Assembly (NCBI GenBank): GCA_045562555.1
Contig: JBJKVO010000001.1
Coordinates: forward strand, 328,148 to 392,147
DNA length: 64,000 bases
From: Dehalococcoidia bacterium
GTDB lineage: Bacteria; Chloroflexota; Dehalococcoidia; Lucifugimonadales; UBA3495
Direction: 5' to 3'
Shown in pieces: positions 17,859-36,970 of the stretch (the first letter of the stretch is position 1; each line of letters begins with the position of its first letter). A model generated the notes under the pieces. That model was given only the letters and a program-made list of their open reading frames with translations. It was not told where the DNA came from and did not search any database. The position numbers and the translations under genes are program-made.

Positions 17859-19556
17859 TCAATCAGCTGAAGTTGCACTAGTCAGAGGATCTTCTAGAGT
17901 ATCAGGTAAAGATCCCCCCGGAGGAACCATGGGGAATACGTTTACAGATGGATCGATGACAAATTCAAGTAAATATGGCCCATTGTGTTCTTGAGCTTTT
18001 AGTAGAGCCGCAGCTACATCTTCTTGTTCAGTAATCCTAACAGCAGGTATACCGTAAGATTCAGATAATTTCACATAGTCAGGACCTGGCATGGGGATTT
18101 GATTGAGGTGCCCATCAAAATACATTTCTTGCCATTGTTTTACCATTCCAAGAACTCCATTATTCAACAGTACTATTTTTACTGGTAAGTTTTCATGAGC
18201 TAATACCATCAATTCTTGTAAAGTCATTTGGAAACCCCCATCACCAGCTATTGTCCATACGGTGGAGTCTGGGGCTGCTACTTGAGCCCCTAATGCTGCA
18301 GGCACCTCGAACCCCATAGCTCCGAGCCCTCCTGATGAAATGAAAGTGTTAAATTTATCAAGGAATAAGAATTGAGCTGCCCACATTTGGTGTTGCCCTA
18401 CTCCGGTTACCACATTTGTATTCGGATTTTGTTGGATAATATCATTAAGATCTTTAAGTACATGCTGGGCAAGAAGTTTCTCGGTTTTTGGTATCGCTAA
18501 TGAAGGGTGTTCTTCTTTAATTTTCAGTATTGACGATACCCAAGCGCTATGCTCTGCTTTCTCCAGTAAAGGTAATAATTCCGTCAGCACTGCTTTTGCA
18601 TCTCCTGGCAGGCCTACTTCAGTTGGAACATTTCTCCCTATTTGAGAAGATTCAATATCAATATGTATTATTCGCGCATGTGGGGCAAAAGCGGCAGTAT
18701 TACCAGTTACTCGGTCATCGAACCGCATACCAACACCAAATATGACATCCGCCTGATCTGTAGCCATATTTGACCAGTACATACCATGCATTCCTAACAT
18801 GCCTAATGACATGTCGTTGTTGCGAGGGAAATTGCTTAAACCTAACAGAGTATTTATTACTGGGATGCCGGTTTTTTCTGATAAATCCAGTAATTCTTGA
18901 TCAGCTTTGGAAATCAGGACACCGTGACCAGCTATTATTACAGGACGCTCTGCTTGATTTAAGAGTCTCGCTGCATCAGGAAGCTTTGCTCTGGTTTCTT
19001 GAGATATTGTGGGAGTGGGAATAGGCTTTACTTCTGGGTAATTGAATTCCGCTAGTTCTAGCTGTACATCCCTGGGGATGTCGATTAATACAGGTCCGGG
19101 CCTCCCTTCTTGTGCCACTTGGAAGGCCTCATGGATTGTATCAGCCAGATCGTCAGTTGACATAACCAAAAAAGTTCTTTTAGTGCATGCTGCTGCGATC
19201 GAACAAATGTCACATTCCTGAAATGCCTCTGATCCTAGGGCTGTCCTGGCAACTTGGCCAGTTATAGCAACCATTGGAACGGAATCTGCTTTAGCCCCCA
19301 TGATTCCTGTAACTAGATTGGTTGCCCCAGGCCCTGATGTAGCAACACATACGCCTGGCTTTCCTGTTATCCTAGCGTATCCATCTGCGGCATGTGCTGC
19401 AGACTGTTCGTGCCTGACTAGTATGTGCTTTAGTTGGGGGTAACTCCAGAGTGCGTCATAAAATGGGAGGATTGCTCCACCTGGATGCCCAAATAAGACT
19501 TCAACCCCTTCTTTAAGTAGACTTTCGCAAACTATTTCCGCGCCTTTTAGTTTCAC
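17859..19556 (-). CDS. Acetolactate synthase large (catalytic) subunit paralog; no adjacent small subunit
   Basis: Collinear with ilvB at 35024-36715 (GVGQHQMWAAQF, GGLGAMGFEVPAALGA, IAGDGGFQMT). I prefer GTG 19556, preceded by GGAG, giving VKLKGAEIV, which parallels MKLTGAEIV of ilvB. The track's longer N-terminus overlaps the T-box terminator. Confidence 0.85.
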   Translation of the reverse strand: MKLKGAEIVCESLLKEGVEVLFGHPGGAILPFYDALWSYPQLKHILVRHEQSAAHAADGYARITGKPGVCVATSGPGATNLVTGIMGAKADSVPMVAITGQVARTALGSEAFQECDICSIAAACTKRTFLVMSTDDLADTIHEAFQVAQEGRPGPVLIDIPRDVQLELAEFNYPEVKPIPTPTISQETRAKLPDAARLLNQAERPVIIAGHGVLISKADQELLDLSEKTGIPVINTLLGLSNFPRNNDMSLGMLGMHGMYWSNMATDQADVIFGVGMRFDDRVTGNTAAFAPHARIIHIDIESSQIGRNVPTEVGLPGDAKAVLTELLPLLEKAEHSAWVSSILKIKEEHPSLAIPKTEKLLAQHVLKDLNDIIQQNPNTNVVTGVGQHQMWAAQFLFLDKFNTFISSGGLGAMGFEVPAALGAQVAAPDSTVWTIAGDGGFQMTLQELMVLAHENLPVKIVLLNNGVLGMVKQWQEMYFDGHLNQIPMPGPDYVKLSESYGIPAVRITEQEDVAAALLKAQEHNGPYLLEFVIDPSVNVFPMVPPGGSLPDTLEDPLTSATSAD

Positions 19557-19586
19557 TTTTACTCCATTATATGGGGCTATTTGAAT

Positions 19587-19850
19587 AAAAAAATCCCGCC
19601 CCCTATACAAGGGACGGGATTTTCCCGCGTTACCACCCTAATTGCTCAAGCCGTTGCTTGAGCCGCTCAATAACGACACTAACATGCCGCGTGATATTTA
19701 CAGGTCACGAATTCTGTCCTAGCTTACTTGGCTTAGCTGTTCAGCAGGCCGCTCCAGAGGGATTTTCCTTTAACTTCTAGTGTCTGCTTTCACCGTACCA
19801 GACTCGCTTTACTGTTAGATTAAAGTACTCGTCTCTTTCAACGCGTTTAT
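19587..19850 (-). promoter_or_regulatory. T-box riboswitch leader (specifier ambiguous: AUC Ile or AAU Asn) with intrinsic terminator
   Basis: On the minus strand: AAUUAGGGUGGUAACGCG T-box motif (19626-19638). Terminator AUCCCGUCCC-UUGUAUAG-GGGGCGGGAU plus U7 (19587-19624). Stem I has the AGUA/GAA S-turn, distal hairpin GUCUG...CAGAC and a K-turn-like GGAGCG. Confidence 0.8.
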
Positions 19851-21618: not shown

Positions 21619-22932
21619 GTGTTATTTGTAATCATGAACGCTTCTGGCGCGTCTGTGGATGTAGGCTCATCGAATTTGGTTTTGCAGATCGTACTGATAC
21701 TGCTTAGTATCGGAATGGTGGCGATTTTTACCAGCGCTGAAGCTGCTATGATGTCGGTGAATAAATTTAGGACTAGGTACCTAGAAGAACAGGGCAACAA
21801 ATCCGCTCGGATTCTCAACAAACTGATGTCCAAACATGAAAAGTTTTTCTCAACTATATTACTTACCGAGAATACTTTTATTATATTCGCTTCATCTGCA
21901 GGTACAGCTCTGGCTATCAAAATATTAGGCGGTAGTGGATTAGCAATTATTATAGCTCCTTCTATTATGACAGTCCTGGTAGTTATATTCGGTGAAATAA
22001 CTCCTAAAACATTTGGTGCAATTTTTGCTGAAAAATGGTCATTGTTTATTGGCAGGCCTATATCTGTCGTGATGTTCTTAGAGACACCGTTGATTTTCTT
22101 GTTTTCACTGGTGCCGAGGTTGCTTAAGAAAATCTTTAAGGTGAATGATACTCAAGGACATTCAGTGTCTGAGGGTGAACTCAGAATGATGATAGGAATA
22201 GGAGAAGCAGAAGGATCAGTGGACGCATCTGAAGCAGACATGCTGGAAAATATATTTCGGTTTGGAGATAGTCACATGACAGCTATCATGACTCCTAGGC
22301 CTGAAATTATTTGGCTCGAACGAGGTACTACTTACCAAGAATTCTTGGAAGTTTATAGGTTGCATAGTCATTCCAGGTTTCCGGTTTATGGAGAATCGAT
22401 AGAAGATGTGATTGGCGTGTTAAGTGTCAAAGATATAGTTCTGAAAGCCACTCAATCAATAGTGCAACTTGATCAGGATATTACTACCGATCTAAGGACT
22501 GCATTTTTTGTTCCTGAAACTAAGACAGTTAGCGAGACATTTACTGAAATGAGAGTTAATGGACATTCGATCGCCTTAACAGTTGACGAATTTGGGGGTA
22601 TTGCAGGGATTGCTACGTTAAAGCAACTTGTTGGAATAATTGTTGGAGAAGTGACCGAAGAAGAAGGAGAACCGGAAGATGTATTGCCTTTGAGTGAGTC
22701 CAATTATCTGATTGATGCAGGTAAGACAATAGTCGAAACTAATGAAGAATTAGGCATAGACCTTCCAGAAGGGGAATATCAAACCGTAGCGGGATTGATA
22801 CTTAAAGCGCTGGGCAAAATACCAAATGTTGAAGAAATTGTGGATATAGATAATGTGCGTTTAACGGTAAAATCTATGGTTGGCGTTCGATTGGATAAAG
22901 TGCAGGTCAGGATCTTGCCGAGAGTGGAATGA
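21619..22932 (+). CDS. CNNM/HlyC-CorC family transporter (DUF21, CBS pair and CorC_HlyC domains)
   Basis: N-terminal TM DUF21 region, CBS pair region, C-terminal CorC-like domain. GTG 19 is preceded by GGTGA at 21605-21609. Confidence 0.75.
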   Translation: MLFVIMNASGASVDVGSSNLVLQIVLILLSIGMVAIFTSAEAAMMSVNKFRTRYLEEQGNKSARILNKLMSKHEKFFSTILLTENTFIIFASSAGTALAIKILGGSGLAIIIAPSIMTVLVVIFGEITPKTFGAIFAEKWSLFIGRPISVVMFLETPLIFLFSLVPRLLKKIFKVNDTQGHSVSEGELRMMIGIGEAEGSVDASEADMLENIFRFGDSHMTAIMTPRPEIIWLERGTTYQEFLEVYRLHSHSRFPVYGESIEDVIGVLSVKDIVLKATQSIVQLDQDITTDLRTAFFVPETKTVSETFTEMRVNGHSIALTVDEFGGIAGIATLKQLVGIIVGEVTEEEGEPEDVLPLSESNYLIDAGKTIVETNEELGIDLPEGEYQTVAGLILKALGKIPNVEEIVDIDNVRLTVKSMVGVRLDKVQVRILPRVE

Positions 22933-29328: not shown

Positions 29329-30126
29329 ATGACCACGTTAAATGAGGTTTATTCACAGTTTGTTACCGAGCGGAAAGCCACTGCTAAACAAAAAGAAGGA
29401 TATCAGGACCTAGGTAAATTTGTGAACTATTTTGGGAAAGACCGCAATATCAATGAGATATTGCCCTCAGAGATTGCAGACTATGCTCAGCATATAGGCC
29501 GTACTGCTACTGATCCAGCAAAACGGCTCGCCACTGTAAAATTATTTCTGGCATATTTGAAAAAACAAGAATTAATTGAAGGAAGCCTTGCAACTCATCT
29601 AAGAATCCCTAGGACTAGGGCTTCAGCTTCTAAACGAGCAGCTGCTGCTCAAGAAGGAGGAACTGTTTTAAGCCAAGAAGGTTTTGACATGTTGACTTCA
29701 GAATTGGATTCGCTGAAAATCGAAAGAGTTTCTGTGGTAGAAGATATCAAGAGAGCGATGGAAGATGGAGACTTTAGAGAAAATTCTCCGCTAGACGCAG
29801 CTAAGGAACGACAAGGCTTCGTTGAGTCTAAGATTAAAGAGCTAGAAAGCAGTCTTAGAGGAGCTCAAATTATGTCTGCTGCTAAGAATTCTGGTAAAGA
29901 ACGCCGAGTATCTATAGGTTCTAAAGTTACAGTCAGAGATTTGGGATCTGGTAAAAAGTCCACGTATTCGTTAGTTGATATAAGGGAAGCAGATCTCGCT
30001 TTAGGGAAATTATCCACTTCATCGCCTGTGGGACAAGCTTTGATGGATTCTTTGGTAGGTGACGAGGTGTCTGTCTCAGTTCCTCGTGGGACCGTTGCAT
30101 ATAAAGTCGAGCGGATCGCTCGTTAA
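29329..30126 (+). CDS. greA: GreA-type transcript cleavage factor with a ~110-aa N-terminal extension
   Basis: C-terminal ~155 aa is GreA-like (coiled-coil tip EDGDFRENSPLDAAKERQGF; globular domain SSPVGQALMDSLVGDEV). The N-terminal part has no Gre homology. Strong AGGAGGAG SD. Confidence 0.75.
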   Translation: MTTLNEVYSQFVTERKATAKQKEGYQDLGKFVNYFGKDRNINEILPSEIADYAQHIGRTATDPAKRLATVKLFLAYLKKQELIEGSLATHLRIPRTRASASKRAAAAQEGGTVLSQEGFDMLTSELDSLKIERVSVVEDIKRAMEDGDFRENSPLDAAKERQGFVESKIKELESSLRGAQIMSAAKNSGKERRVSIGSKVTVRDLGSGKKSTYSLVDIREADLALGKLSTSSPVGQALMDSLVGDEVSVSVPRGTVAYKVERIAR

Positions 30127-30145
30127 ATTTCTAAATAGGTAGATT

Positions 30146-30179
30146 AAAAAGCTCCACCTTATTTCAGGTGGAGCTTTTT
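30146..30179. terminator. Bidirectional intrinsic terminator between greA and the peroxiredoxin gene
   Basis: AAAAAGCTCCACC-ttatttca-GGTGGAGCTTTTT: perfect 8-bp GC-rich core flanked by A and T runs. Confidence 0.75.
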
Positions 30180-30180
30180 A

Positions 30181-30639
30181 TTATCCTTCAATAGCAGCTA
30201 GCATATCATTCGGATCTGGAGCTTTACCGGGCCCATAAACTTGCCTGAATATGATAGTTCCACTTTTGTCTATCACGATTAGTGCGCGTAGGCCTGCGCC
30301 TCTTTCCTCATTCCAGATATCATATGCTTTGGTCACTTCTCCTTTAGGGTGCCAATCAGACAATATTGGGTGAGGTAATCCTCCTAACGATGTAGCATAG
30401 GCTCGATGAGCTGCCACTGAGTCACAACTTATGCTCAGAACTTGAGCATCTTTTTCTTCGAATCGGTCATTGAATTGCCGAAATGAAGTTACTTGATTTG
30501 TTCAACCGCCTGTAAAGTCGAAAATATGGAACGATAAGACTACGTATTTCTTGTCTTTGTAATCACTTAATGAAACGTCTCCATGATCGACTGAAGGTAG
30601 GGTGAAATTTGGTGCGGGTTCGCCAACATTTGCTGACAT
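30181..30639 (-). CDS. PrxQ/BCP-type peroxiredoxin with an in-frame TGA at the peroxidatic-Cys codon (candidate Sec; alternatively a nonsense pseudogene)
   Basis: ATG 30639, preceded by GGAGG (30647-30651), reads ...FHIFDFTGG-TGA(30502-30504)-TNQVTSF...SISCDSVAAHRAY..., continuing in frame into the track ORF 30181-30417. This matches the BCP motif D-x-T-P-G-C-T-x-Q. Confidence 0.6.
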
Positions 30640-30780: not shown

Positions 30781-31734
30781 ATGGAAATTGTTTTTGATAA
30801 AGGAATATATGTTCCTTCCTTGAATTTATGGTTGGACTCGACCCGTAAAAAAGAATTTTGCGTGGTGAGTCATGCTCACTCGGACCATGTTGCTCGGCAT
30901 AACATACCTGTTATGACTAGCAGTACGTTGAAGTTATTAGGAGAATATTACAAGAAGAGTGATCCAATAATAATAGGTTATGATCAAGAAGTTGGTTACG
31001 ATAAGTTCTCGTTGACGTTTTATCCTGCAGGACATTGCTTAGGCTCTGCTCAAATCTTGATTATAGACAAAGAAACAGGGCTGAGGATAGTCTATACTGG
31101 GGATTACAAAATGAGTCCTAGTCCAGTAAACGAGGGAAGTAAAGTTATTCCATGCGACGTACTCATTATTGACGCTACCTACGGGAAAATTCAGTATATT
31201 TTCCCAGAAGAAAACAAAATTATCCAAGATGTTGTGCGAATATTAAACAGTTGGTTGGGTGATGGGTATAGACCGATTTTAGAAGGCTGGAAACTGGGCA
31301 AAGCACAAGAGATTTTATTTCATATGCTAGCCCAAGGATTTAAAGTCGTAGTTGAAGAGAGTATTTATAAAATTTGTCAGATATATGAAGAGGAAGGAGT
31401 GGTCTTTCCAGGCTCGTATAGATTATTTACAGGGTTATGGGAAACTGATGAAATACTTCTTTGCCCGCCAAATCGGGTTAAAAAACTTGACATTCAACAA
31501 GTTAATGGGAAGCGGATTATGAGGTTGACTGGCTGGGCTATGGACTATAAATCAGGCAGTCGTTATGGCAGGACTATGGTGCCTTACAGTGATCATGCTG
31601 ACTTTAAGCAATTGCTCAATTATGTTGGGCAATCTGGAGCTACGAAAATATATACAGTAAATGGTTTTCAAGACTTATCAAAATATTTGGTCAATTTAGG
31701 ATATGAATCCAGTCATTTGGGGCGGTCTATGTAG
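30781..31734 (+). CDS. MBL-fold / beta-CASP-like nuclease (ligase-associated-exonuclease-like)
   Basis: VVSHAHSDHVARH (HxHxDH), later YSDHADF. Length is 317 aa. Confidence 0.55.
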   Translation: MEIVFDKGIYVPSLNLWLDSTRKKEFCVVSHAHSDHVARHNIPVMTSSTLKLLGEYYKKSDPIIIGYDQEVGYDKFSLTFYPAGHCLGSAQILIIDKETGLRIVYTGDYKMSPSPVNEGSKVIPCDVLIIDATYGKIQYIFPEENKIIQDVVRILNSWLGDGYRPILEGWKLGKAQEILFHMLAQGFKVVVEESIYKICQIYEEEGVVFPGSYRLFTGLWETDEILLCPPNRVKKLDIQQVNGKRIMRLTGWAMDYKSGSRYGRTMVPYSDHADFKQLLNYVGQSGATKIYTVNGFQDLSKYLVNLGYESSHLGRSM

Positions 31735-34517: not shown

Positions 34518-35024
34518 TTATACTTCTTTGTTATTTCCTCGAGTCATTGCTACCCTTCCTGTACGCATCATCTGGATAACCGTGTAAGGGTTTAGTAGGT
34601 CTTGGAGAGCAGCTATTTTGTCTTCACTTCCTGTAACTTCTACCACAATAGAATCAGTTCCAACATCCACTATGTTTGCTCTGAACATTTGAGCTATTTG
34701 GATGATGTCAGATCGAGTCTCTGGAGAAGATTGAACTTTAATTAACGCTAGCTCTCTTGCGATGATTTTTTCTTCGGTGATATCACAAACCCCTCTAACA
34801 TCTATCAGTTTGTCTAATTGGCGGGTAGCTTGGATCACTATGTCTGGGCTACCATCTACAACACATGTCATCCTGGATAAACCAACTTCTTCACTTTTGC
34901 CCACTGTCAAGCTAGCAATGTTAAATCCTCTTCTTCTAAATAAACCAGCTATCCTGGTCAATACGCCGGGTTTGTCTTCTACAAGAGCCACGATTGTATG
35001 TAGTCTTTCATTTGCCATGGCCAC
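34518..35024 (-). CDS. ilvN: Acetolactate synthase small (regulatory) subunit
   Basis: ACT domain [28 protein letters not shown]. Abuts ilvB. Confidence 0.85.
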
Positions 35025-36715
35025 TACACTTTTATCTCCGGCTGAGGTTCTTCGATCATGTCGCTGACGGTTTGTCCTGAAGGGATAAATGGATAGACAT
35101 TTTCTTCTTGCCTAACTATAAACTCCACAATTACTGGTCCAGGGGTATTAATTGCTGTTTGGATAGCTGATGACACTTCTGCTTTATCGGTTACCCGGAT
35201 ACCAGTTATTCCGTAAGCTTCTGCGATTTTCACAAAGTCTGGATTTCCTGCGTATTGGGTAGCAGTATATTCACTATCATATGACAGATCTTGTAATTGT
35301 TTCACCATTCCCAAATTGTTATTGTTCAAGATGGCGAATTTGACGTCAATATTATTTTCTACCGCTGTAGCTAATTCAGGGAAGGTCATTTGAAAGCCAC
35401 CATCTCCTGCAATTGACCATACTGCTTTGTCGGGTTGTCCAACCTTTGCTCCTAGGGCAGCCGGAACTTCAAAGCCCATCGTTCCTAGACCACCAGACGT
35501 AACCCAACTATTTGGATAACTGAATTCACAGAATTGGGCTGCCCACATTTGGTGCTGCCCAACACCGGTAACGATTATAGCTTCTTGATTGGTTTCTTTT
35601 GCTAGTTCCTTCAATACGTATTGAGGAAGCAATTCGGATGTTTCTCGAATGTTTAAAGACGGATGCTCAGATCGCAATTGTTCAATTCGATTCATCCAAT
35701 CCACGTTTATATTATTGTCGACCGCTGGAATCAGTTGGTTCAATACAGTTTTAAGATCTCCTTGGATTCCTACATGCGGTTTTATGTTTTTACCTAGTTC
35801 AGAAGGATCAATATCTACATGTAAAACTCGGGCGTTTGGCGCGAATGCGTCAAGCTTGCCCGTGACTCGGTCATCAAACCTCATACCCAAAGCTATCAAT
35901 GTATCAGATTCTTCTATAGCTATACTTGCGTAAGCCATTCCATGCATTCCAGGCATGCCTAAGTTTAGGAAATGGTCAGTGGGTAATGTACTTATACCAA
36001 GAAGTGTTGTTATAACGGGAATTTGGCATTTTTCAGCTAATTCAATAACTTCATTATGAGCATGTGAGATTAATGCGCCATGTCCTGCTATGATAACTGG
36101 TTTTTTAGCATTATTAATTAGCTGTACTGCTTCGTCTATTTCTTTTTGCGAAGCTTCCATTTTGGGCTTGTATCCAGGCAAGTCGATGTTTACTGGGTAC
36201 ACGTACTCACATGTTTCTGTTAGTACATCCCTAGGTATGTCTACTAATACGGGCCCTGGCCTGCCTGTTCGAGCGATATGGAATGCTTCTTTGATGGCCG
36301 TTGCTATTTCGTCTGTATTCATGACTAGGTAATTATGTTTGGTTACAGGCAGAGTTATACCAGTTACATCCGTTTCTTGGAAGGCGTCTTTTCCTATAGC
36401 TGGTCTGCTAACTTGACCTGTAATGGCGACTATAGGCACAGAATCCATTTGAGCTGCTGTTATTCCTGTGACAAGGTTTGTGGCTCCTGGTCCAGAAGTT
36501 GCTGTGCATACTCCGACTTTGCCTGTGGAGCGAGCATAACCGTCTGCGGCCATAGCTGCAGCTTGCTCATGTCTTACTAAAATATGTTTTAGCTCACTAT
36601 ATTTAGGCAATGCTCCATAAAAAGGAAGGATTGCTCCACCAGGTAACCCGAATAGAACGTCTACCCCTTCTTCTATTAAGCTTTCACAGACAATTTCTGC
36701 GCCAGTTAATTTCAT
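35024..36715 (-). CDS. ilvB: Acetolactate synthase large subunit
   Basis: MKLTGAEIV..., GVGQHQMWAAQF, IAGDGGFQMT (ThDP motif). Heads the ilvBNC-leuA operon. Confidence 0.9.
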   Translation of the reverse strand: MKLTGAEIVCESLIEEGVDVLFGLPGGAILPFYGALPKYSELKHILVRHEQAAAMAADGYARSTGKVGVCTATSGPGATNLVTGITAAQMDSVPIVAITGQVSRPAIGKDAFQETDVTGITLPVTKHNYLVMNTDEIATAIKEAFHIARTGRPGPVLVDIPRDVLTETCEYVYPVNIDLPGYKPKMEASQKEIDEAVQLINNAKKPVIIAGHGALISHAHNEVIELAEKCQIPVITTLLGISTLPTDHFLNLGMPGMHGMAYASIAIEESDTLIALGMRFDDRVTGKLDAFAPNARVLHVDIDPSELGKNIKPHVGIQGDLKTVLNQLIPAVDNNINVDWMNRIEQLRSEHPSLNIRETSELLPQYVLKELAKETNQEAIIVTGVGQHQMWAAQFCEFSYPNSWVTSGGLGTMGFEVPAALGAKVGQPDKAVWSIAGDGGFQMTFPELATAVENNIDVKFAILNNNNLGMVKQLQDLSYDSEYTATQYAGNPDFVKIAEAYGITGIRVTDKAEVSSAIQTAINTPGPVIVEFIVRQEENVYPFIPSGQTVSDMIEEPQPEIKV

Positions 36716-36730
36716 TTTATTTTCTCCAAT

Positions 36731-36970
36731 AAAAAAACCCGTCCCTGAAGGGACGGGTTTGATTCTTATACCCGCGGTACCACCCTTCTTCTTGGAGTAG
36801 GTGCTCCAAGCAGCTTTGGATGTCGATTTCGAGACAAGCCGTTTCCCCTACTACTATTTCAGAGAAATCGCTCCTGGGCGAGTTCGCAATTCGTTAGCCG
36901 CTTGCTCCCACCATGTACAAGCTCTCTCTAAGGCGCGCAATTGCTACTACTCCCATTCGTAGCGTGAACC
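36731..36970 (-). promoter_or_regulatory. T-box riboswitch leader, leucine specifier CUC, with intrinsic terminator
   Basis: Minus strand: GGGUGGUACCGCG (36773-36785). Terminator AAACCCGUCCC-uuca-GGGACGGGUUU plus U7 (36731-36760). Specifier loop is 5' AGUAGUA / 3' GAA-CUC-G, with CUC at 36880-36882. AGAGAGA bulge and GGUGGGA distal loop are present. Confidence 0.85.

Follow-up and report, generated by a model that had tools for sequence, protein, structure and literature searches.

The locus lies in the assembly of a Dehalococcoidia bacterium (GCA_045562555.1), on contig JBJKVO010000001.1 at positions 328,148 to 392,147 of the forward strand; this whole stretch of 64,000 nt is referred to here as the window. 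It has a G+C content of approximately 40% and carries one tRNA-Asn and two T-box leaders, as detected with ARAGORN and Rfam. On the minus strand, from 30639 to 30181, we found a predicted complete coding sequence for a selenocysteine peroxiredoxin (prx), comprising 152 codons, including the putative Sec46, and a terminal TAA at 30183-30181. Translation of this frame yields MSANVGEPAPNFTLPSVDHGDVSLSDYKDKKYVVLSFHIFDFTGG, an internal stop, then TNQVTSF...AAIEG and the terminal stop. The internal stop is a TGA at 30504-30502 (codon 46), and it is the only one in the frame; the claim of an earlier sequence-only reading that the 152 codons contain no further lesion was thus borne out. In the list of open reading frames the gene appears only as two pieces, one of 45 aa (30502-30639) and one of 78 aa with a GTG start (30181-30417). 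A Pfam search with cysteine placed at codon 46 of the query returned AhpC-TSA (PF00578) over residues 5 to 130, spanning the TGA, with an E-value of 1.1e-34. Among genomes, the closest relatives of the gene, at 83-94% amino-acid identity, reside in metagenome-assembled genomes labelled Dehalococcoidia or Chloroflexota.

A Shine-Dalgarno sequence, GGAGG, was read directly at 30651-30647 on the minus strand, with 7 nt separating it from the ATG start codon at 30639, just as had been described. The extended -10-like element previously put forward as a TGnTATAAT promoter, TGATATAAT, is present at 30675-30667 on the same strand, but a -35/-10 consensus scan gave no call there and we therefore regard it as a sequence match only. 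Downstream of prx, the terminator scan revealed a bidirectional terminator at 30145-30180, a GC-rich hairpin with a 15-pair stem set between runs of A and T. This hairpin abuts the prx stop codon (30181-30183) and is shared with a convergent gene for a GreA/GreB-like protein (29329-30126, plus strand), whose 265 residues include an N-terminal extension of approximately 110 residues with no Pfam match. Convergence of a greA-like gene with prx was also seen in distant relatives (272 aa in locus L086). On its other side prx adjoins a plus-strand gene of 317 aa (30781-31734) that gave a sub-threshold Lactamase_B_2 score (20.9 bits; cutoff, 27); in the 63%-identical ortholog locus a metallo-beta-lactamase-like gene, of 337 aa and with a faint RMMBL match, likewise lies between leuA and prx. 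Synteny with the 63%-identical ortholog, on a circular contig of 4.07 Mb, takes in ilvB-ilvN-ilvC-leuA, the metallo-beta-lactamase-like gene, prx, the greA-like gene, FeS-assembly/Mrp/ParA, tilS, a histidine phosphatase and CNNM.

The two T-box leaders of the window, at 19607-19850 and 36746-36969 (both minus strand, 121 bits each), each immediately precede a gene for a TPP enzyme of the acetolactate synthase type (17859-19610 and 35024-36715, the latter followed by ilvN, ilvC and leuA), which suggests two ilvB paralogs under tRNA-sensing control. In one related locus, a long-read contig at 5x coverage (L085, 3198-4905), ilvB was called as two genes of 282 and 227 aa versus a single gene of 568 aa in relatives, probably the result of a frameshift error in that assembly.

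The protein had been taken for a PrxQ/BCP peroxiredoxin, and this assignment was rejected on scores, motif and fold. The best PDB sequence matches were all to AhpE of Mycobacterium tuberculosis (91.5 bits, E=4e-25, ranging to 6e-23; 37% identity over 141 positions), followed by Prx1-type chains at approximately 74 bits and BCP/PrxQ-type chains at only 49 to 55 bits. A structure prediction of high confidence (pLDDT 94.5) superimposed on AhpE end to end, with TM scores of 0.93-0.95 in both directions and an rmsd of 1.2-1.5 Å, and PrxQ/BCP proteins were absent from the 50 top structural matches of the model. Although PrxQ/BCP enzymes are similarly small (approximately 150-160 residues) and share the thioredoxin-like fold, the NCBIfam models for E. 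coli Bcp (PRK09437; 50.3 bits, cutoff 140) and Deinococcus PrxQ (NF053650; 44.6 bits, cutoff 260) fell far short of their cutoffs, and both the DxTPGC motif and the cysteine at CP+5 are missing. No NCBIfam model reached its cutoff, the best-scoring being NF040737 (peroxi_PrxU) at 67.8 bits against 270. PrxU of Eubacterium acidaminophilum, reportedly characterised as a selenocysteine peroxiredoxin by Sohling et al. in 2001, resembles the present protein in being a bacterial peroxiredoxin with selenocysteine at the peroxidatic position, but its profile spans 233 positions as against 152 residues here, and the two are not orthologous.

Relatives of prx were collected by scanning genomes and metagenomes, the metagenomes yielding at least 494 tblastn-confirmed relatives of which the best 80 were retained; the two scans together provided 83 related loci, with amino-acid identities of 56-99%, and 67 distinct family proteins were used to tabulate motifs. 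In place of DxTPGC the active site reads FH[IV]xDFTxGU, or more fully F-H-[VI]-x-[DNS]-F-T-x-G-U across the family and FHIFDFTGG-U-TNQ in the window protein. Codon 46 (30502-30504, minus strand), the predicted selenocysteine of the motif T43-G-G-U46, aligns with the cysteine of FTGIC in AhpE, in accordance with the earlier claim that the TGA occupies the peroxidatic-cysteine codon; the peroxidatic residue of AhpE is Cys45 (PMC4965862). The codon for Thr43 of the TxxU motif (30511-30513) aligns with Thr42 of AhpE and is found in 67/67 distinct family proteins, while that for the conserved active-site arginine, Arg118 (30286-30288), aligns with Arg116 of AhpE in an invariant column. In the predicted structure residue 46 is the first of helix alpha2. 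At U-7, the position of the canonical proline of PxxxTxxC/U, the family has valine in 59 proteins and isoleucine in eight, preceded by histidine, and proline in none of the 67.

The likeness to AhpE (Rv2238c; PDB 1xxu, 1xvw and 4x0x) extends to length, at approximately 153 aa, to the F-T-G-x-C/U motif and to the conserved threonine and arginine. AhpE differs, however, in having Cys45 rather than selenocysteine, in keeping the motif proline (FFPLAFTGIC) and in being actinobacterial. It is also a true 1-Cys enzyme, since it has valine where the family described here has Cys72. The TGT codon of this residue lies at 30424-30426 (minus strand), within an [IM]SCD motif; Cys72 (U+26) is present in 66/67 distinct proteins and is the sole cysteine in 65 of them, and it recurs in cysteine-form relatives. 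It falls directly after strand beta4 and before helix alpha3 of the model, and no cysteine occupies CP+5; in PrxQ/BCP enzymes the resolving cysteine sits in alpha2 at CP+5, as in most members, or else in alpha3. Cys72 is a candidate resolving residue and may serve as such. The label 'AhpE-like' as used here denotes the nearest neighbour by sequence and predicted fold.

The homologous codon is TGA in 83/83 related loci and TGT or TGC in none, and in each of them the frame is otherwise open and of the same length. Substitution rates were estimated by the Nei-Gojobori method from pairs of 75-99% identity. The 40 codons preceding the TGA gave a dN/dS ratio of 0.072, the 27 codons from the TGA to the point at which the C-terminal fragment is annotated to begin gave 0.135, and the codons downstream of that point 0.071. 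Comparison of the window gene with the L001 gene of its own clade revealed 73 nucleotide differences and only seven residue differences, a ratio of 0.03, so that values of 0.03 to 0.14 prevail throughout the gene. These results bear directly on the alternative raised in the sequence-only reading, namely that a TGY-to-TGA nonsense mutation made prx a pseudogene. In its favour, gene callers end the frame at the TGA, and fragments of 45 aa and 78-88 aa are on record in databases. Nevertheless, retention of the TGA in every relative down to 56% identity, purifying selection on either side of it (the window's own clade included), the lack of a second lesion and the kept synteny render decay of the gene highly improbable.

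An error of sequencing or assembly in this contig can be considered next to negligible. The same TGA recurs in independent assemblies from ENA, JGI, NCBI and Logan, among them long-read circular contigs. Single-base variants or errors do occur, as illustrated by an unrelated 696-bp scaffold (L093, 104-565; protein P0004) whose catalytic codon is TTA (Leu) and whose sequence context is otherwise identical to that of L054; this sole TGA-less member of the family can be put down to an error or to a dead allele.

The fragments annotated on either side of the TGA might instead be genuine products, a 45-aa N-terminal polypeptide and a C-terminal piece begun at an internal start, which would form a split peroxiredoxin or of which only the C-terminal piece would matter. 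Gene callers report both in many assemblies. The internal GTG at 30417, however, has no Shine-Dalgarno sequence, purifying selection extends to the 27 codons that separate this start from the TGA (dN/dS 0.135, as above), and the catalytic residue would belong to neither piece. In every relative the interruption coincides precisely with the catalytic codon. We judge this arrangement very unlikely. Thus, because the TGA is kept in relatives, selection is purifying on both sides and synteny is preserved, we interpret the TGA as a recoded codon rather than a nonsense mutation, an error or the boundary of a split gene, and the earlier proposal of a recoded selenocysteine codon is upheld.

A recoded UGA could in principle be read as a standard amino acid, either tryptophan or glycine, if the code were altered or a near-cognate tRNA took part, or cysteine inserted by the selenocysteine pathway when selenium is scarce. 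Several database entries (among P0001-P0009) show tryptophan at the site, and no selenocysteine machinery was found in the window or in 549 kb of related loci. The tryptophan is explained by code-4 gene calling, which translates TGA, as the DNA of L094 reveals. Across the 51 other large ORFs of the window the stops are TAA in 27, TAG in 15 and TGA in nine (including that of 21619-22932); the genetic code is therefore standard and TGA an ordinary stop elsewhere in the window, as previously stated. Furthermore, an enzyme with tryptophan or glycine as its peroxidatic residue would be inactive, insertion of cysteine by the selenocysteine pathway would still need the same machinery, and the existence of cysteine-form homologs, together with a conserved hairpin at the spacing of a bacterial SECIS element (bSECIS), fits selenocysteine. 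Decoding as a standard amino acid accordingly strikes us as unlikely. A scan of the window for pairs of ORFs joined by TGA, and hence for a second selenoprotein, found only shadow frames and junctions of adjacent genes, leaving prx as the only plausible TGA-interrupted gene.

Cysteine-form relatives belonging to the same subclade were found at approximately 44% identity, namely P0217 (locus L095, 1431-1889), which reads SFHIYSFTKGC...ISCD with a TGT codon at the catalytic position, and also P0221 and P0222; their gene neighbourhood is other than that of the selenocysteine-form prx. A more distant AhpE-like clade, represented by P0219 (L097, 254-715; 40% identity), has the motif FHPFSFTGG-U, in which the proline is retained, and a TGA at the catalytic codon. 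Beyond this TGA, at a distance of 17 nt, comes a canonical SECIS made up of a stem of 8 bp and a GUU loop. Two further database proteins, P0216 and P0233, have tryptophan at the catalytic site.

In bacteria the stem-loop of a selenoprotein mRNA lies inside the coding sequence. A SECIS-like stem-loop is located in the prx mRNA at 30488-30456 (minus strand), where it had been proposed, and starts 13 nt past the TGA. It comprises a lower stem (CUUC/GAAG), an internal loop, an upper stem (UCGG/CCGA) and an apical loop, in the arrangement CUUC-auu-UCGG-[..]-CCGA-uuc-GAAG. Its minimum free energy is -9.1 kcal/mol (z=-2.84), and three of 200 shuffled sequences fold equally well. We aligned the region without gaps from the TGA onwards in 64 distinct sequences, of which columns 17 to 49 correspond to the window hairpin. 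When members were folded singly, a lower stem of 5 bp, a 2x2 internal loop and an upper stem of 4-5 bp were predicted in almost every case. On the alignment, 83.6% of cells formed pairs, compared with 22-49% when the partners were slid by one to three columns. Compensatory changes (CG/UA, GC/CG/AU) occur at six of the ten pairs, and the covariation score was reached by none of 500 shuffles. The dS of the hairpin segment was 0.84 as against 1.26-1.29 in the other segments, a reduction expected from an added constraint on the RNA. Conservation of the hairpin is partly driven by the protein, because its stems overlap the conserved FR...RFEE codons; the compensatory swaps and the slid controls nonetheless argue for a real RNA constraint. 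No equivalent two-stem hairpin lies downstream of the TGT codon in the cysteine-form locus L095.

Published criteria for bSECIS elements comprise a loop of 3-9 nt, a G in the first two loop positions, a spacing of 16-37 nt and a minimum free energy of -7.5 kcal/mol or lower (PMC13188914). Within the family the spacing from UGA to loop (23-29 nt) fits in 64/64 sequences, the free energy in 63 and the loop size in 57. A G at loop position 1 or 2, typically as GU, was found in 30/64 on the minimum-free-energy folds and in 46/64 on the consensus loop of 9 nt. The window hairpin agrees in spacing (26 nt), free energy and loop size (6 nt), but neither of its first two loop nucleotides is a G: it carries AA, in contrast to the GU or AG of most relatives, and the same holds for L001, L003 and L007. 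The sequence-only reading had considered the hairpin a weak candidate; it is conserved and covaries throughout the family, but the window copy lacks the canonical loop G. The clade of the window, lacking this G, still displays strong purifying selection on prx.

The genes selA, selB and selD were not seen in the 64-kb window, and ARAGORN and Rfam detected no tRNA-Sec there, only the tRNA-Asn and the two T-boxes. Searching the window and 96 other related loci (549 kb) by tblastn with E. coli SelA and SelB gave no match, and a database search with E. coli SelA returned enterobacterial proteins only among the matches listed, a result uninformative for Chloroflexota. Dehalococcoidia MAGs with 46-49 selenoproteins are listed in BSepDB, among the richest bacterial selenoproteomes, and SelA and SelB are reported to be common in sponge-symbiont bins of several phyla. 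One member of the cluster to which the protein belongs is named 'Alkyl hydroperoxide reductase E [Geodia barretti]'. Our main reservations about selenocysteine decoding stem from the absence of the machinery in the window and the 549 kb of related loci, and from the missing loop G in the clade of the window. Even so, taking the conserved codon, the selection on both sides of it, the covarying hairpin and the cysteine-form homologs together, we infer that the UGA at codon 46 is decoded as selenocysteine, with a probability of roughly 0.9. The protein is best read as a member of the known TxxU class of selenocysteine peroxiredoxins in a marine Dehalococcoidia-like host.

The following mechanism can be proposed. 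During translation, SelB and Sec-tRNA(Sec) would bind the stem-loop at 30488-30456, which, from its position 13 nt downstream, would direct recoding of the UGA at 30504-30502. The product would be a peroxiredoxin of 152 residues with a compact AhpE-type fold and U46 as its peroxidatic residue. The selenolate, situated at the N-terminus of helix alpha2 and activated by Thr43 and Arg118, would attack a hydroperoxide to give a selenenic acid. This may then be reduced via a selenenylsulfide with Cys72, which a thioredoxin-like reductant could in turn reduce.

The TxxU peroxiredoxin selenoproteins of marine metagenomes, of which 43 were reported from the Sargasso Sea and 253 from the GOS data (PMC1088965; PMC2398784), share with prx the AhpC/TSA domain (PF00578), selenocysteine in TxxU at the peroxidatic position, a stem-loop directly after the UGA, a marine bacterial origin and the existence of cysteine homologs. 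Their conserved motif is given as PxxxTxxU in a 2026 review (PMC13188914), whereas in every member of the present family the proline is replaced (H-[VI]-x-x-F-T-x-G-U), and the branch is AhpE-like and chloroflexotal. A search of the searchable literature library for a selenocysteine-containing AhpE-like enzyme, using SAR202 or AhpE with selenoprotein, found no paper. Resolving cysteines of peroxiredoxins have been described at the C-terminus and in helices alpha2, alpha3 and alpha5. It is conceivable, if doubtful taken as a whole, that the family constitutes a separate, vertically inherited branch of selenocysteine-using AhpE-like enzymes in Chloroflexota, in which the motif proline has given way to His-Val/Ile, the cysteine at U+26, at the end of beta4 and outside the described locations, resolves through a selenenylsulfide, and the SECIS element of the window's clade works without the loop G. 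Were this the case, a SECIS element with no loop G would imply different rules of SelB recognition in this lineage.

Selenocysteine peroxiredoxins have been known since 2001-2005, so that no general concept is changed; the AhpE-like placement, the replacement of the proline and the conserved cysteine at U+26 are modest particularities within a known kind of enzyme. The family does offer a natural selenocysteine/cysteine pair on the well-studied AhpE scaffold, and 64 natural SECIS variants that could be used for studying recognition by SelB. In public records prx is either split, into a 'hypothetical protein' of 45 aa and an 'alkyl hydroperoxide reductase' of 78-88 aa, or carries tryptophan at the catalytic site. 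Given such annotation and the at least 494 confirmed relatives, counts of the enzyme in marine Chloroflexota are likely to be wrong. For the bacteria themselves, the presence of a putative selenocysteine at the peroxidatic position indicates that they need selenium for their defence against peroxides.
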